From the NCBI GenBank assembly GCA_965249645.1, contig CBDFML010000009.1, positions 20,993 through 84,992 of the forward strand: a stretch of 64,000 nt of DNA. The letters run 5' to 3'. Within the stretch, counting starts at the first letter, position 1; each line of letters starts with the position of its first letter. Position numbers and translations under genes: made by a program. The stretch is from Alphaproteobacteria bacterium (GTDB taxonomy: Bacteria; Pseudomonadota; Alphaproteobacteria; UBA828; JAPUJA01). The notes beneath the pieces are model-generated. The model was not told where the DNA came from. It saw only the letters and a program-made list of their open reading frames with translations, and made no database searches. This document shows, piece by piece, positions 58,789 through 63,881 of this stretch.

Positions 58789-58936
58789 GGCGATCCGCTC
58801 CTCTCGACCCGTGCACGCAGACGTGAACAGGCTTCATTAGGGTGGCTACGCGTACGAGTGTAGCGTACGTCCTGCGGTTGGGGTCAAGGGCAACCGACTG
58901 AGAGCCGACGTGCCACAGCCCGAAGGGTACACAACC

Positions 58937-61090
58937 ATGGTCGATCAACTCATCGGATATTTGGCGCTCGTGCGCCGTGCTTTCGGAATCGCGGATCGCG
59001 GCATTGGGTCGTTTCTCGATCTCGCCATCCGTCTTTCGATCGCCGGCATGTTCTGGAGTTCGGCTATCGTCAAGATCTCCAACTGGCCGGTGGCGCTGGA
59101 ACTTGCGCGAGCCGAATACCCGGTAAGTTGGATGGACCCGGTGGCGGCGGCCTGGTTGGGCCTGGGGATCGAGCTGATCTGCCCCGTGTTTCTCGCCTTC
59201 GGCCTGTTTACCCGGCTCGCCGCGCTGCCGCTCATCGCGCTTTCGCTGATCATCCAGTACGAGTATCTCGCCCTGCCCGAGCACCTGTTCTGGGCCATCT
59301 TGCTGGGGCTGATCGCGATGCGCGGTGCCGGTGCGCTCTCGCTCGACCACCTGTTTGGCCGCGCACTGGTCCGCTCGGCGCTGCCGTTTACCGCGACCGC
59401 GGAAGCTGCGATTGCCACGCTTACCCGCTATGGCGGCTCGGGCTACCAACTCTTCATCCGGCTATGGATGGCGCATATCTTCTGGCAGTCGGGCCTGGTC
59501 AAGATCCAGAGCTGGCAGACCACCCTGTTCCTGTTCGAATACGAATATCAGATTCCGATCCTAGGGCCAGTCACGGCGGCCTATCTGGGTACGGCCACCG
59601 AGCTCGTCGCCCCGGTGCTGATCGCTTTCGGGCTGGGTGCGCGGTTCGCGGCGATCCCGCTCATTATCATGACCGGCTTCATCCAGTTCACCTATCTCGA
59701 CAAGTTGGAGCATTTCTACTGGATGATGCTGTTTGCCCAGATTGCGTTGCGCGGCGCAGGCCCGCTCTCGCTCGATTTCGGAATCGGCTGGCTGTTGGCG
59801 AAGCGCTTTCCACAGCTTGCAGGCAAACCCGCATTTTCGCTCGAGGGCTTGCCCCGGGTGGTGATCGTGGGCGCGGGCTTCGCCGGCCTGGCGGCGGCGC
59901 GCGGGCTCGCCATTGCACGCGCCCAAGTCACGGTCGTCGACCGCTGGAATTATCACCTGTTCCAGCCGCTGCTCTACCAGGTCGCGACCGCGAGTCTCGC
60001 GCCCGCCGACATCGCGACGCCGATCCGCAGCCTGCTGCGCGACCAGTTCAACACCCGGGTTCTGCTCGACGAGGTCACGGGCGTCGATACGGCGAGCCAG
60101 GAGGTGCTGATCGGCGAGCAGCGCATCGGCTACGACTATCTTGTGCTGGCGACCGGTGCGCGGCACAGCTATTTCGGCAAGGACGACTGGGAGGCCTTTG
60201 CGCCGGGGCTCAAGCAGGTCGACGATGCGACCGCGATCCGTCGCCGGATTCTCTCGGCCTTCGAGCGGGCCGAAAGCGCGGACGACGAAGCCGAGCGGCG
60301 GCGTTTGCTCACCTTCATCGTCGTCGGCGGCGGCCCGACGGGGGTCGAGCTGGCCGGGGCGATCGCCGAGCTTGCACGCTTCGGCATGGAAAAGGAGTTT
60401 CGCACGTTCGACCCGGCGGACGCGCGGGTGGTGCTGATCCAGTCGCCCGACCGGGTGTTGCCGTCCTTTCCGGACGTTCTCTCGGCCAAGGCGAAGGCGG
60501 CGCTGGAAGAACTCGGTGTCGTGGTTCGGGTCAGCTCGCGCGTCGAGCATGTGGACGCGGACGGCGCCATCGTCGGCGGCGAGCAGATCGAGGCGCGCAC
60601 GGTGTTGTGGGCGGCAGGCGTGATCGCCTCGCGCGCGGCGCGCTGGCTGGACGCGGAGGCCGACAAGGCGGGCCGCGTCAAGGTCGAAGCGGATTTTTCG
60701 CTCCCGAACCGACCGGAAATCTTCGTCGTCGGCGACACGGCGCTGGCCGTGGACGCTGCGGGGCGAACCCTGCCGGGCCTCGCCCCCGCCGCAAAGCAGG
60801 CGGGCGAGCAGGTTGCGAAACTGATCAAGGCGCGAATCGCGGGCAAGCCCGAGCCCAAAGCATTCCGTTATAAGGACATGGGCAGTATGGCGACGATCGG
60901 GCGGAAGTCCGCGGTCGCCGATTTCGGCCATGTTCGCTTGTCGGGCATGCCGGCCTGGTGGCTGTGGGGCCTCGTCCATGTCGCCTTCCTGGCCGGCGCG
61001 CGAAACCGGCTCTCGGTGATGGTCGAGTGGGTCTGGGCCTACCTGACCTACCGGCGCAGTATCCGGCTGATCACAGGAACCGGAAACTGA
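58937..61090 (+). CDS. Fusion of two DoxX membrane domains with a type II NADH:quinone oxidoreductase
   Basis: Two DoxX units (R..FW.S..VKI..W..EY..EL..PV..FGL.R.AA.P..GAG.LSLD), then GAGFAG, HLFQPLLYQVAT, GGGPTGVELAG. Confidence 0.85.
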   Translation: MVDQLIGYLALVRRAFGIADRGIGSFLDLAIRLSIAGMFWSSAIVKISNWPVALELARAEYPVSWMDPVAAAWLGLGIELICPVFLAFGLFTRLAALPLIALSLIIQYEYLALPEHLFWAILLGLIAMRGAGALSLDHLFGRALVRSALPFTATAEAAIATLTRYGGSGYQLFIRLWMAHIFWQSGLVKIQSWQTTLFLFEYEYQIPILGPVTAAYLGTATELVAPVLIAFGLGARFAAIPLIIMTGFIQFTYLDKLEHFYWMMLFAQIALRGAGPLSLDFGIGWLLAKRFPQLAGKPAFSLEGLPRVVIVGAGFAGLAAARGLAIARAQVTVVDRWNYHLFQPLLYQVATASLAPADIATPIRSLLRDQFNTRVLLDEVTGVDTASQEVLIGEQRIGYDYLVLATGARHSYFGKDDWEAFAPGLKQVDDATAIRRRILSAFERAESADDEAERRRLLTFIVVGGGPTGVELAGAIAELARFGMEKEFRTFDPADARVVLIQSPDRVLPSFPDVLSAKAKAALEELGVVVRVSSRVEHVDADGAIVGGEQIEARTVLWAAGVIASRAARWLDAEADKAGRVKVEADFSLPNRPEIFVVGDTALAVDAAGRTLPGLAPAAKQAGEQVAKLIKARIAGKPEPKAFRYKDMGSMATIGRKSAVADFGHVRLSGMPAWWLWGLVHVAFLAGARNRLSVMVEWVWAYLTYRRSIRLITGTGN

Positions 61091-61165
61091 TTGCCCGGAA
61101 GGGGCCTTTTCGCCGGCCTTGAGGCGGAGTATGGTTCGCGCCTCGAATTCTTGGGGGATCGTCAC

Positions 61166-62155
61166 ATGGCGGATCACGGTTACGAAACCGGACGTTTGAA
61201 CCTGCCCTTCGTGGGCCACGTGACCTTTGGCAAGGCCCCGCCCTGCACGGACTGGGAGGTGATCGAGGCCGACGTCGCGGTGCTCGGCGTGCCCTTTGAC
61301 ATGGGCACGCAATACCGCTCGGGCGCGCGATTTGGGCCGCGCGGTATCCGCGAGGCCTCCACGCTGTTCTCGTTCGGCCACGCTGGCGTCTACGACCACG
61401 AAGACGACATCGTTTATATGGCCAAAGAGGATGTCACGATGGTCGATGTGGGCGACGCAGATATCGTGCATACGGATACGGAGGCATCTCACGCCAACAC
61501 GACCGCTGCTGTTAAGGCCATCCTGGAACAGGGTGCGCTGCCGATGATCCTGGGCGGCGATCACTCGATTACAGCGCCGGTGATGGCGGCGTACGAGGGG
61601 CGCGGGCCGATCCATATCGTGCATTTCGACGCCCATCTCGATTTCGTCGACGAGCGCCACGGCGTGCGCTTCGGCCACGGCAACCCGCTGCGCCGTTGTT
61701 CGGAAATGGCCCATGTCTCGGGCATGACCCAACTCGGTATCCGGGGCGTGTCGTCATCGAACAAGTCCGATTACGACGACGCCCGTGCGGCGGGCTCGAC
61801 CATCCTGTCGGTGCGCCAGGTGCGCAAGCTGGGCGTCGAGGGCACGCTCGCCAAGATCCCCGACGGGGCGCGGTATTACGTGACTATCGACATCGACGGT
61901 TTCGATCCGTCGATCGCGGCCGGCACGGGTACGCCGAGCCCCGGCGGCTTCCTCTATTACGAGGTCGCCGAACTGCTCCAGGGGATTTCGCGGAAGGGCG
62001 ATCTGGTGGGCATGGATCTGGTCGAGGTCGCGCCCGATTACGACCACACAGGGAGTACCGCCATGCTGGCGGCGCGCATCGTGCTCGACATGATCGGTTA
62101 CGTCTTCGTCGAACGGAAACGGCGCGCCGATGGGCGCGAGGCAGCGGCGGAATAA
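61166..62155 (+). CDS. Ureohydrolase (agmatinase family)
   Basis: GGDHS, HFDAHLD, GHGNP, TIDIDGFDP. Confidence 0.92.
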   Translation: MADHGYETGRLNLPFVGHVTFGKAPPCTDWEVIEADVAVLGVPFDMGTQYRSGARFGPRGIREASTLFSFGHAGVYDHEDDIVYMAKEDVTMVDVGDADIVHTDTEASHANTTAAVKAILEQGALPMILGGDHSITAPVMAAYEGRGPIHIVHFDAHLDFVDERHGVRFGHGNPLRRCSEMAHVSGMTQLGIRGVSSSNKSDYDDARAAGSTILSVRQVRKLGVEGTLAKIPDGARYYVTIDIDGFDPSIAAGTGTPSPGGFLYYEVAELLQGISRKGDLVGMDLVEVAPDYDHTGSTAMLAARIVLDMIGYVFVERKRRADGREAAAE

Positions 62156-62179: not shown

Positions 62180-62746
62180 TCAGTTGGCCAGGGCCAGATT
62201 GATCAGCTTGATGGCGGCGCGCTTGGCGACTTGTGCAATTGTTGGATCGTGCATGACGTGAGAGCGGGTTGCCGAGCCCTCGACCAGCAGTATCAATTCA
62301 TCGGCCAGGGCGCCGGGATCGGCAGCACCGGCGGCGACGGCCTGCTCGCGAATGTAGTTGTGGATCAGACGCTGGTGCTCGGCGCAGGCATTGAGAACGG
62401 GATTGTCCGCGTCGGGAAATTCGCCTGAGGCGTGCATGAACAGGCAGCCCTTGAATTCGGGGGCCCTGAACCATCCCTCCATGACGTCGAAAAGAGCGAC
62501 CAACCGGTCGCGCGGCGATTTGGCCAGCCGTTCGATCTCGCGCATGAAGTCGTTGCGCATGGTCTCGTCCATCCGCCGGATCACCGCCAGAATCAACTCG
62601 TCCTTGGACTTGAAATGCTTGTACAGCGTCATTTTGGCGCAGCCCGATTCGGCCAGCACCTTGTCGATGCCCGTGGCGTGGAAGCCGTTCTCGTAAAACA
62701 GCCGTAGCGCCGTGTCGATTAGCTGGTCGCGCTTGCTCGAGGCCAT
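62180..62746 (-). CDS. TetR-family transcriptional regulator
   Basis: LF..NGFHATGIDKV..SGCAKMTLYKHFKSKDEL; GCLF motif. Confidence 0.93.
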   Translation of the reverse strand: MASSKRDQLIDTALRLFYENGFHATGIDKVLAESGCAKMTLYKHFKSKDELILAVIRRMDETMRNDFMREIERLAKSPRDRLVALFDVMEGWFRAPEFKGCLFMHASGEFPDADNPVLNACAEHQRLIHNYIREQAVAAGAADPGALADELILLVEGSATRSHVMHDPTIAQVAKRAAIKLINLALAN

Positions 62747-62774
62747 GATGAAGGGCTCCTGTTCCGTCACATCT

Positions 62775-62794
62775 TGTACATACTGTTCTGTACA
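62775..62794. promoter_or_regulatory. Putative TetR operator 2 (autoregulatory)
   Basis: TGTACATACTGTTCTGTACA; core matches the 62966 palindrome at 11 of 14 positions. Confidence 0.6.
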
Positions 62795-62957
62795 CTATAT
62801 CGAAGTTTCCACGCCTCATAAACGAAAAATTTTGGTAGCCAGCTCGCTATATTAAAAGAGACGGGCGAGGAGGTAATGAAAATACCGTTAAATATCATAT
62901 ATTTCCTGTGCAAGGGGCAGTGACGGAATCTCTTTTGGGCTGGAGTGAAAAAAGCTG

Positions 62958-62986
62958 TTGACAGAACAGACTAGTCTGTCTATATT
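62958..62986 (+). promoter_or_regulatory. Sigma70 promoter with a perfect palindromic operator in the spacer
   Basis: TTGACA-17 bp-TATATT; ACAGACTAGTCTGT at 62966-62979. Confidence 0.8.
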
Positions 62987-63103
62987 CTCAACCATCAATC
63001 GCGGCGACAACAGCCCGCGGCAAAGAACCGGAAAAGGCCGGCGCGATTTTTAGAACCGAGAGACCGACACAACAGACAACACATTTGAAACAGGAGAAAG
63101 ACC

Positions 63104-63766
63104 ATGACCCGCACGATCAAGACCATTACCGCTTCCGCCATCGCCGCCATCGCCATTGCAGCGGCCGTTGCTTCAACTTCCGCCGAGGCCAAGATCGTCC
63201 ACGCCGACGACATCGCCAAACACCCGGTGATCCAGGACGTCGAGCGTGGCTTCAATCCAGCCAACTTCGACGTTGCTCGCGGTTTCGATCCCAATCAAGA
63301 CGCCGAGCGCGGTTTCGACCCCCGGACCGATGTTGCTCGCGGTTTCGATCCCGATCGCGACGCCGAGCGCGGCTACGACCCCCGGACCGATGCGGCGAAA
63401 ATCGACACGATCAAGAACGACGCCGAGCGCGGTTTCGACCCCCGGACCGATGTGGCGCGGGGCTTCAACCCGGCCAACTTCGACGTGGCGAAAATCGACT
63501 CGATCAAGAATGACGCCGAACGTGGTTACGACCCCCGGACCGACGTGGCGCGGGGCTTCAACCCGGCCAACTTCGACGTGGCGAAAATCGACTCGATCAA
63601 GAATGACGCCGAGCGCGGCTACGACCCCCGGACCGACTTGGCCCGGGGCTACAACCCGGCCAACATCGACGTGGCGAAAATCGGCTCGGTCAAGGATGAC
63701 GCCGAGCGGGGCTTGACCCCGGCCCGTGACCTGGCCCGCGGCTATACCCCCAACGCGGTTGCGTAA
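63104..63766 (+). CDS. Secreted protein of tandem ~10-aa modules (possible multi-copy peptide precursor)
   Basis: RBS AGGAG; Sec signal ending AEA; 13 D-x-[AE]-RG[FYL] units and 4 D-x-AKI units. Confidence 0.85.
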   Translation: MTRTIKTITASAIAAIAIAAAVASTSAEAKIVHADDIAKHPVIQDVERGFNPANFDVARGFDPNQDAERGFDPRTDVARGFDPDRDAERGYDPRTDAAKIDTIKNDAERGFDPRTDVARGFNPANFDVAKIDSIKNDAERGYDPRTDVARGFNPANFDVAKIDSIKNDAERGYDPRTDLARGYNPANIDVAKIGSVKDDAERGLTPARDLARGYTPNAVA

Positions 63767-63835
63767 ACCCCGTTAGCGAGAGGCCGGAAACCCTCCCCCG
63801 AGCGTCCCTCCCGCGCTCTTCGATCCGGCCCCCTG

Positions 63836-63881
63836 AACCGGTCCCCCGAGCCCCCCTCTCGGGGGGCCGGTTTTCTTTTTT
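63836..63881 (+). terminator. Rho-independent terminator
   Basis: AACCGGTCCCCCGAG..CTCGGGGGGCCGGTT stem followed by TTTTCTTTTTT. Confidence 0.85.

Follow-up and report, generated by a model that had tools for sequence, protein, structure and literature searches.

A TetR-linked gene for a predicted exported decapeptide-repeat protein in an alphaproteobacterial genome

Introduction

What does a protein do that consists of a leader followed by almost nothing but modules of about ten residues, and why does its gene stand opposite a gene for a TetR-family repressor? The question is raised by a stretch of 64,000 nucleotides (called the window here) from the genome of an Alphaproteobacteria bacterium (assembly GCA_965249645.1, contig CBDFML010000009.1, positions 20,993 to 84,992). 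Near its end lies an open reading frame (ORF) whose modules mostly carry an Arg-Gly pair, and we call it the RG gene and its product the RG protein. The first-pass annotation of the window had described a secreted polyprotein from which proteolysis could release many short peptides, had named a dedicated TetR as its regulator, and had offered a repetitive ligand-binding periplasmic protein as the alternative. We followed up these proposals by comparison of genomes, proteins and predicted structures. The RG gene is real and under selection, as indicated by its Shine-Dalgarno box, promoter, terminator, codon composition and the pattern of substitutions between its repeats. The alternative in the annotation, a repetitive periplasmic protein that binds ligands, fits the evidence better than the release of peptides. 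The reading that we favour, and to which we give about an even chance, is that a ligand induces the RG protein, which would act in the periplasm as a multivalent, probably disordered repeat protein. In this reading, the regulation is far better secured than the biochemical function.

Results

The RG gene encodes a regular array of decapeptide modules

The RG gene encodes 220 amino acids, followed by a stop codon; the coordinates of the features are collected in Table 1. From residue 45 to its C-terminal end the protein is occupied by the array, which is built of 13 RG units (12 with RG[FY] and one with RGL) and 4 AKI[DG] units. All 17 modules open with D-[VAL]-[AE]-[RK], and a module-like stretch, DDIAKHPVIQ, is found just ahead of them. 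Each super-repeat is made up of an AKI unit, DAERG[FY]DPRT and D[VL]ARG[FY]NPAN[FI]. Tandem Repeats Finder reported a period of 93 bp at 63394-63720 (3.5 copies, 91% matches, score 528), and periods of 30 and 60 bp at 63268-63453. The counts of the first-pass annotation (13 RG units, 4 KI units, a 31-residue super-repeat present about three times, the same opening of every module) were all correct. Between the three good 93-bp units, the ratio of nonsynonymous to synonymous changes per site (pN/pS) was 0.18-0.36. This indicates that the module sequence is under purifying selection. In the RG frame, the GC content was 0.81 at third codon positions and 0.48 and 0.65 at the other two, and that of the contigs across the source genome (G000) was 62-66%. 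Rfam gave no family in the 5' untranslated region of the gene; its one sub-threshold match fell on the terminator.

Read by eye, the N-terminus has the layout of a Sec-type leader: MTRTIK, then a hydrophobic stretch, then SAEA/K, the same putative cleavage site that the first-pass annotation had named (AEA/K). This layout of a charged start, a hydrophobic stretch and an AxA end is kept in the relatives of the RG protein, and from it we infer export to the periplasm. The leader has no lipobox Cys and no twin-Arg motif; a lipoprotein and a Tat substrate were dropped as candidates because the RG protein has neither Cys nor RR. The mature protein of 191 amino acids has a pI of 4.9 and a grand average of hydropathy (GRAVY) of -0.93. 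It contains 31 Asp, 13 Asn, 20 Arg and 10 Lys residues and 7.3% Gly. Cys, Met and Trp are absent from the mature chain, for which reason a sacrificial antioxidant role was also dropped.

The RG proteins form a very small family with unstable array length

An exhaustive phmmer search of 1.84 billion representative sequences (E <= 0.001) returned 50 matches, nine of which are true relatives (P0001, P0002, P0005, P0007, P0011, P0012, P0016, P0023 and P0032; 103-154 amino acids). Every one of them except P0032 has a leader at the N-terminus. The other 41 were rejected as repeat or low-complexity matches, mostly long proteins with 0-2 RG[FYW] motifs; we judged them by the RG[FYW] counts in all 50 matches and by the sequences of P0003, P0004, P0021, P0025, P0047 and P0051. 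The last of these was rejected despite its four RG[FYW] motifs, since they belong to unrelated 20-residue repeats. A profile search gave 12 matches, seven of which were inspected as sequences, and added six new members (P0054, P0055 and P0057-P0060). The true relatives span 100-221 amino acids, and the window protein counts as the largest known member. A metagenome scan with the RG protein returned one locus only, which turned out to be an AT-rich repeat outside the family.

Across 92 RG sites in 13 proteins, the family consensus is D-[VTAI]-[AED]-R-G-[FYW]-[NDST]-P-x-x. The residue after RG is Phe at 45 of these sites, Tyr at 32 and Trp at 4; Pro stands two positions past the aromatic residue at 64, and Asp three residues ahead of Arg at 56. 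The spacing from one RG to the next is almost always 10 residues, with occasional values of 9-11, and of 20 or 21 across modules that lack RG. Two subtypes can be told apart. Members of the window type carry an N-terminal motif, D-x-A-K-x-P-x-x-E-x-I, before the first RG unit; in the RG protein of the window, the segment KIVHADDIAKHPVIQ contains the best-conserved motif of the family outside the repeats, D-x-[AQL]-K-x-P-x-x-E/Q-x-[IV]. The other subtype has a C-terminal tail of its own and includes a second gene of the source genome (G000:C9:295373-295765), called the paralogue below.

Of the four other genomes that belong to the same taxonomic family, three have an RG-repeat gene and the fourth (G001) has a remnant. 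No RG-repeat gene was found in 44 genomes of the sister family or in a class-wide sample of 400 others. Judged by their sequences, the RG-repeat proteins are a very small, lineage-restricted and unnamed family of exported proteins. The length of the array is unstable in this family. P0054 and P0057 have essentially identical flanks, and their arrays differ by exactly 60 residues, that is, by three double units of 20 residues. P0005 has four perfect 20-residue repeats. These two cases suggest that the arrays expand independently in each lineage.

We compared the RG protein with known families. No Pfam or NCBIfam model reached its cut-off, no PDB sequence matched at E <= 1, and the ESM Atlas gave nothing above 0.84. 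Searched against the PDB, the profile of the super-repeat gave matches at chance level only (ribosomal protein eL13, E 0.038; a methane monooxygenase component, E 1.2). When all 12 sequences of alignment A1 were scanned against Pfam, no family was matched by more than one of them. The model PF25296 'Decapeptide repeat region' has a cut-off of 45 bits; P0054, a member of the paralogue type, reached only 27.9 bits, one of the 12 aligned members matched at E 0.02, and the window protein was not among the matches of this model. RTX (HemolysinCabind) repeats, whose consensus differs, and pentapeptide repeats (A[DN]LxX) were rejected, as neither was among the Pfam matches (E up to 1) of the window protein and the 12 aligned members. 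EF-hand-like Ca2+ loops were dropped by eye, because their spacing does not fit. Literature searches brought up nothing relevant on RG-repeat motifs, on disordered periplasmic decapeptide repeats or on PF25296, nothing relevant on TetR/CMD operators, and no relevant paper containing the operator strings described below. Within the libraries and literature searched, the RG-repeat family and the operator of the TetR subfamily appear to be undescribed. The first-pass annotation had taken the protein with its TetR for its best candidate for an undescribed system, and had also noted correctly that Cys and a globular domain are lacking: no such domain was seen by Pfam, NCBIfam, the PDB or AlphaFold.

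The promoter of the RG gene contains a conserved putative TetR operator

The divergent regulator matches TetR_N (PF00440; E 1.4e-15, 57.2 bits against a cut-off of 24) and TetR_C_13 (PF16925; E 1.2e-12, 48.6 bits against a cut-off of 27). A start at ATG 62746 gives a protein of 188 amino acids, and an upstream GTG at 62770 would give one of 196. The alignment of homologues begins near residue 9 of the longer form, and a GGAG box precedes the ATG. The regulator is the sole member of its subfamily in the source genome, where the next TetR protein is 31% identical. The best NCBIfam model (DicD/YjdC) scored 56.8 bits against a cut-off of 240, and the closest solved relatives in the PDB are unnamed structural-genomics entries.

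The 4.1-Mb genome contains no other exact copy of the palindrome ACAGACTAGTCTGT. In G002, which belongs to a different genus, a small RG-repeat gene also has a divergent neighbour that encodes a TetR protein of 54% identity. When the intergenic regions of the two genomes (357 bp and about 320 bp) were aligned, a single conserved block of about 30 nt stood out, GTTGACAG-r-ACAGACTAGTCTGT-TAT. Besides, the sequence TGTACATACTGTTCTGTACA at 62775-62795 adjoins the start of the TetR gene. It shares ACAGAACAG, as its reverse complement, with the nucleotides that immediately precede the operator, and could serve autoregulation as an auxiliary site.

We then looked at the loci of TetR homologues (L020-L099), the best 80 of 436, with 45-61% identity. 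Their record titles name mostly Alphaproteobacteria, some Planctomycetota including Phycisphaerae, and others. It turned out that in 34 of the 80 loci exact ACAGACnnGTCTGT precedes the TetR gene by no more than 400 nt, at distances of about 90-260 nt, and that it occurs nowhere in the remaining 593,980 nt of these loci. When up to two mismatches were allowed, the operator was present in 37 loci. In example loci it lies between TATA-like and TTGACA-like hexamers directed away from the TetR gene. A ligand-domain Cys (in F-K-G-C-L-F) is conserved in 79 of the 80 homologues. NemR is a TetR-family repressor that senses electrophiles by a thiol-based mechanism, and by analogy the conserved Cys offers a lead towards sensing of this kind.

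An RG-repeat ORF adjoins the TetR gene in one of the 80 loci (L032), which has the same ORFs as the G002 locus and is not independent of it. A second flagged RG ORF (L086) was rejected as a spurious Arg-rich frame. To see what the operator faces elsewhere, we scanned against Pfam the divergent ORFs directly upstream of the TetR gene, which a crude ORF picker had found in 35 loci. Eleven were CMD/AhpD-like; PNPOx_N, Abhydrolase_3 and NMT1_3 were found twice each, and GST, DJ-1/PfpI, DUF1348/SnoaL and PALP once each. The other 14 matched no family, and some of these may be false ORFs. In the source genome itself, a second site of the operator type, outside the window (ACAGACAAGTCTGT, G000:C11:612811; L101 2900-3672), has one central mismatch and keeps both half-sites and the upstream TTGACA. 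It is located 5' of an ORF for a very acidic protein of 53 amino acids, which is followed by a PNPOx_N gene. To judge by its sequence, this site probably marks a second promoter of the same TetR regulon.

A functional tie between TetR and the RG gene is thus supported by the conserved operator in the promoter, by the pair in a second genus and by the joint loss described below. The description of the regulator as dedicated does not hold. The tie itself stands, but the subfamily is widespread and elsewhere faces CMD/AhpD-like, PNPOx, GST, DJ-1 and hydrolase genes, and in the source genome the regulator probably also controls the PNPOx-like gene.

The array is an improbable source of free peptides

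We considered whether the RG protein could be a multi-copy precursor, in which a periplasmic or extracellular protease would cut the exported chain at the D-x-x-[RK] boundaries and free many copies of three types of decapeptide as signals or effectors. If true, this would be a new Gram-negative way to make multi-copy peptides. The gross architecture agrees with it: behind the leader, nearly identical modules of uniform length stand in tandem, all 17 with the same start; their sequence is under purifying selection; closely related alleles of the paralogue type differ in their number of units, as pheromone precursors do; and expression appears, from the promoter sequence, to be tightly gated. 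Most of what is conserved speaks against it. Only R-G-aromatic, with the following Pro, is nearly invariant in the family, and a cut after R/K would split this motif. There are no dibasic sites, and the D-x-x-[RK] starts match no known protease motif. From species to species the modules vary freely in sequence but keep their period, and some relatives have only 4-5 units. No peptidase, RiPP (ribosomally synthesized and post-translationally modified peptide) or other modifying enzyme, or exporter was found in the scanned flanks of the four RG loci where flanks were readable (those of the window gene, the paralogue, G002 and G004), the flanks of G003 and of short contigs being out of view. Decapeptides are too large to diffuse out of the periplasm within the size limits of porins, and no transporter is linked. 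Taken together, this makes the release of peptides, the central proposal of the first-pass annotation, very improbable. We give just as little chance to the boldest form of this proposal, a TetR-gated polyprotein that would be cleaved, in the periplasm or outside the cell, to about 17 decapeptides of three types without RiPP enzymes, or to a no less unconventional one, a periplasmic Arg/aromatic 'sticker' that on induction would gel or soak up Arg-reactive or aromatic toxicants.

Structure prediction suggests a disordered chain

For the RG protein as a single sequence, AlphaFold2 gave a mean predicted local distance difference test score (pLDDT) of 46.2 and a predicted template-modelling score (pTM) of 0.13. 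With a 12-row alignment, these values were 52.9 and 0.15. No residue reached pLDDT >= 70. The mean hydropathy of 0.397 lies below the charge-hydropathy boundary of 0.428, and the charges alternate regularly along the chain. Based on these models, the RG protein is probably a disordered polyampholyte. The strict period of 10 residues speaks for a structural constraint of some kind.

The models also placed short helices, with low confidence, at the P-x-x-D-x-x-R part of most units. It is conceivable that the modules fold regularly into a solenoid or fibre of short helices or beta-turns, maybe stabilised by Ca2+ or another cation through Asp/Asn, and serve the envelope as a structural, adhesive or ion-binding element. 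Apart from the recurrent position of the helices, this is suggested by the 10-residue period, which is kept across relatives of 35-45% identity and by the modules without RG, by recurrent hydrophobic residues ([VIL] two before Arg, an aromatic residue two after it) with Asx-Pro turn motifs, and by the abundance of Asp and Asn in the mature chain. Against it stand the low pTM and pLDDT values, the lack of any RTX, pentapeptide or other repeat model in Pfam up to E = 1, and the chance-level matches of the super-repeat profile in the PDB. Moreover, the invariant residue is Arg, not an acidic or Gly-rich loop, and arrays of near-identical alleles differ by whole units. We consider a regular fold unlikely.

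Natural variants of the TetR/RG pair and its apparent loss in a related genome

Contigs from sequencing runs of three other studies (X3, X5 and X10) contain a relative that is 90-95% identical; these contigs show presence only. No RNA run was among those listed for this DNA. A single contig of X3, and likewise one of X5, links the TetR gene across the intergenic region to the 5' part of the RG gene; the counterpart in X10 extends only to the start of the TetR gene. Among the differences listed for X3, none falls in the promoter/operator at 62958-62986. Short-read assemblies of other runs break inside the array, and their loose ends carry a variant module.

G001, a genome of the same genus, is syntenic: glnA is followed by the terminator and then by the arginase-family gene. 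The segment corresponding to 62679-63665 of the window (987 bp) is missing there (L104 1340-1560, G001:C13). The deletion takes the first 23 or so codons of the TetR gene, the whole intergenic region with the promoter, and RG codons 1-187. What is left is a frameshifted tail of the RG gene and a remnant of the TetR gene that matches in two separate frames. By its sequence, this deletion appears to be a joint loss of the TetR/RG pair, which would make the pair dispensable.

A further possibility is that the RG gene is a dispensable, fast-evolving ORF without a specific function, kept by chance beside a regulated promoter. Such an origin would agree with a tiny, lineage-restricted family, with the loss of the gene within the genus, and with a low-complexity sequence of unstable array length. 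It is hard to reconcile with the low pN/pS between units, with the conservation of the leader, the N-terminal motif and RG-aromatic-x-P between genera, with the promoter/operator conserved between two genera, and with the retention of the paralogue, which has orthologues in other organisms. This explanation is extremely unlikely in our estimate.

The RG genes of G003 and G004 occur without a TetR protein of this subfamily (E <= 1e-20), and the operator was not found near the paralogue or the RG copies of G004. From the paralogue and the G004 copies it follows that the function of the RG family is not intrinsically tied to the TetR regulon.

Genomic context

In the window, the RG gene lies between the TetR gene and a convergent glutamine synthetase gene (glnA). 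Beyond glnA there are genes for a pyridoxal phosphate (PLP) enzyme, hydrolases, an SLT protein and DapA. On the other side, the TetR gene is followed by an arginase-family gene and a DoxX-NDH2 fusion. The fusion (58910-61090, + strand) is a protein of 726 amino acids that joins two DoxX membrane domains to a type-II NADH dehydrogenase (Pyr_redox_2 and NDH2_C), and the arginase-family gene (61091-62155) begins directly after its stop codon.

The other RG loci have different neighbours. In G002, the RG gene is located between the TetR gene and a gene for a DUF5943 protein. The pair of RG genes in G004 lies between a Rieske oxygenase and BTAD-TPR regulators. The paralogue is flanked by two genes of its own strand, one for a Sel1-repeat protein and one for a TPR lipoprotein (L004 85-3159; G000:C9, about 294-297 kb). 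By eye, both neighbours have proline-rich linkers and SPOR-like C-termini, and the three genes may form one envelope unit.

These loci bear on the possibility that the RG protein is a scaffold of linear motifs, whose RG-aromatic units would be bound by periplasmic TPR/Sel1-type proteins with SPOR-like C-termini, or would themselves bind the cell wall. Arrays of linear motifs typically consist of short conserved elements at even spacing within variable sequence, and TPR or Sel1 genes lie beside both the paralogue and the G004 copies. TPR genes are very common, however, and the association comes from two loci; the RG gene of the window has no TPR or Sel1 neighbour, and the TPR proteins of G004 carry a BTAD domain and look cytoplasmic. 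The role of a scaffold is in our opinion quite improbable.

Table 1. Features of the TetR/RG locus (positions in the window; strand '.', not strand-specific)
Feature	Position	Strand	Remarks
TetR-family repressor gene	62180-62746	-	TetR_N + TetR_C_13
Divergent intergenic region, 357 bp	62747-63103	.	AT-richer than the genome
Sigma-70-type promoter TTGACA-17-TATATT	62958-62986	+	11/12 consensus positions (scan)
Perfect 14-bp palindrome ACAGACTAGTCTGT, putative TetR operator	62966-62979	.	in the promoter spacer
Shine-Dalgarno box AGGAGA	63092-63097	+	read from the sequence; 6 nt 5' of ATG
RG-repeat ORF	63104-63766	+	
Sec-type signal peptide, 29 aa, ...SAEA/K	63104-63190	+	predicted by eye
N-terminal segment KIVHADDIAKHPVIQ	63191-63235	+	best-conserved non-repeat motif of the family; 12-member family alignment (A1)
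Array, 17 tandem modules of 10-12 aa	63236-63763	+	segmentation in this analysis
Three well-conserved 93-bp (31-aa) super-repeats	63389-63667	+	Tandem Repeats Finder
Degenerate fourth super-repeat	63668-63763	+	after the three good copies
Intrinsic terminator	63835-63873	+	16-bp stem, 11 GC pairs, then T-run; strong

Discussion

The results can be brought together in our favoured reading as follows. The RG gene would be transcribed singly from a strong promoter with the TetR operator in its spacer. It would stay silent until a ligand or modifier of TetR appears, and would then be strongly expressed. The inducer may be a reactive or xenobiotic small molecule, or a thiol-reactive signal; we infer this because the TetR/operator module elsewhere controls detoxification and redox enzymes. 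The exported RG protein, acidic and of about 21 kDa, would form the periplasmic arm of a TetR-governed response. It would accumulate in the periplasm as a full-length flexible chain and would not serve as a source of free peptides. Its evenly spaced RG-aromatic motifs, acting together, could bind small aromatic or electrophilic compounds, or envelope components, in a multivalent, low-affinity manner, or could shield them.

Several points weigh against this reading. The conserved Cys of TetR may be structural. The RG genes of G004 and the paralogue have no such TetR or operator nearby. The step from partner genes to an electrophile or xenobiotic is guilt by association, made with a crude ORF picker that left 14 of 35 ORFs without a Pfam family. 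The deletion in G001 could be an assembly artefact, as this genome is fragmented into about 130 contigs. A low pLDDT obtained from 1-12 sequences is no proof of disorder, and the strict 10-residue period, kept across modules without RG (spacings of 20 and 21), could mean a regular fold that is invisible to AlphaFold.

The locus is of interest for three reasons. First, it presents a new exported family, whose 10-residue RG-aromatic architecture is simple enough for biophysics. Second, it defines an uncharacterised TetR regulon, with the operator ACAGACnnGTCTGT inside a TTGACA/TATA promoter that mostly faces detoxification and redox enzymes. Third, an exported repeat protein in the slot of the TetR target suggests that the response has a periplasmic arm. 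We regard the locus as a well-delimited orphan system and not as a demonstrated new mechanism.

It is useful to compare the RG protein with known systems. Multi-copy secreted precursors include the yeast alpha-factor, the fungal alpha-pheromone with its decapeptide repeats, FMRFamide-type neuropeptides and the cyanobactin precursor PatE. Like pheromone, neuropeptide and RiPP precursors, the RG protein has a signal peptide and tandem modules of about 10 residues whose copy number varies between alleles. It differs from them in that no known processing sites and no linked protease, modifying enzyme or exporter were found, in that its conserved residues straddle the proposed cut, and in its Gram-negative periplasmic setting.

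RTX and pentapeptide proteins are also bacterial exported proteins with short (9-10 residues) Gly/Asp-containing tandem repeats. In contrast to them, the RG consensus contains neither GGxGxD nor A[DN]LxX. RTX proteins have a C-terminal type I signal, whereas the RG protein has an N-terminal Sec-type leader, and AlphaFold predicted no solenoid for it.

Hydrophilins and other stress proteins resembling late embryogenesis abundant (LEA) proteins, such as GsiB and YciG with its KGG repeats, are cytoplasmic. They are defined by Gly above 6% and a hydrophilicity index above 1; with 7.3% Gly, the RG protein exceeds the first value, and with a GRAVY of -0.93 it falls just short of the second. The RG protein resembles hydrophilins in being very hydrophilic and glycine-containing, in its short tandem repeats and lack of a predicted fold, and in what would be a stress-type regulon. 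Unlike these cytoplasmic proteins it has a leader, and it has Pro and an invariant RG-aromatic motif in every unit; the KGG model was not among the Pfam matches of the RG family up to E = 1.

Low-complexity regions of eukaryotic condensates use Arg/aromatic 'stickers', and salivary proline-rich proteins bind tannins. With both, the RG protein shares a charged, probably disordered chain that contains Pro and Gly and in which Arg and Phe/Tyr recur at even spacing, and a function that would depend on multivalency. There is no homology and the setting is the periplasm, so that this is an analogy only.

On the side of regulation, the locus follows the TetR/tetA paradigm: a TetR repressor, a divergent target and a palindrome (of 14 bp here) inside the target promoter. 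It departs from the paradigm in that the target is an exported repeat protein, not a pump or an enzyme, and in that the TetR subfamily is uncharacterised. The layout of a regulator and its divergent target is thus classical, and the new part is the RG target family and the operator.

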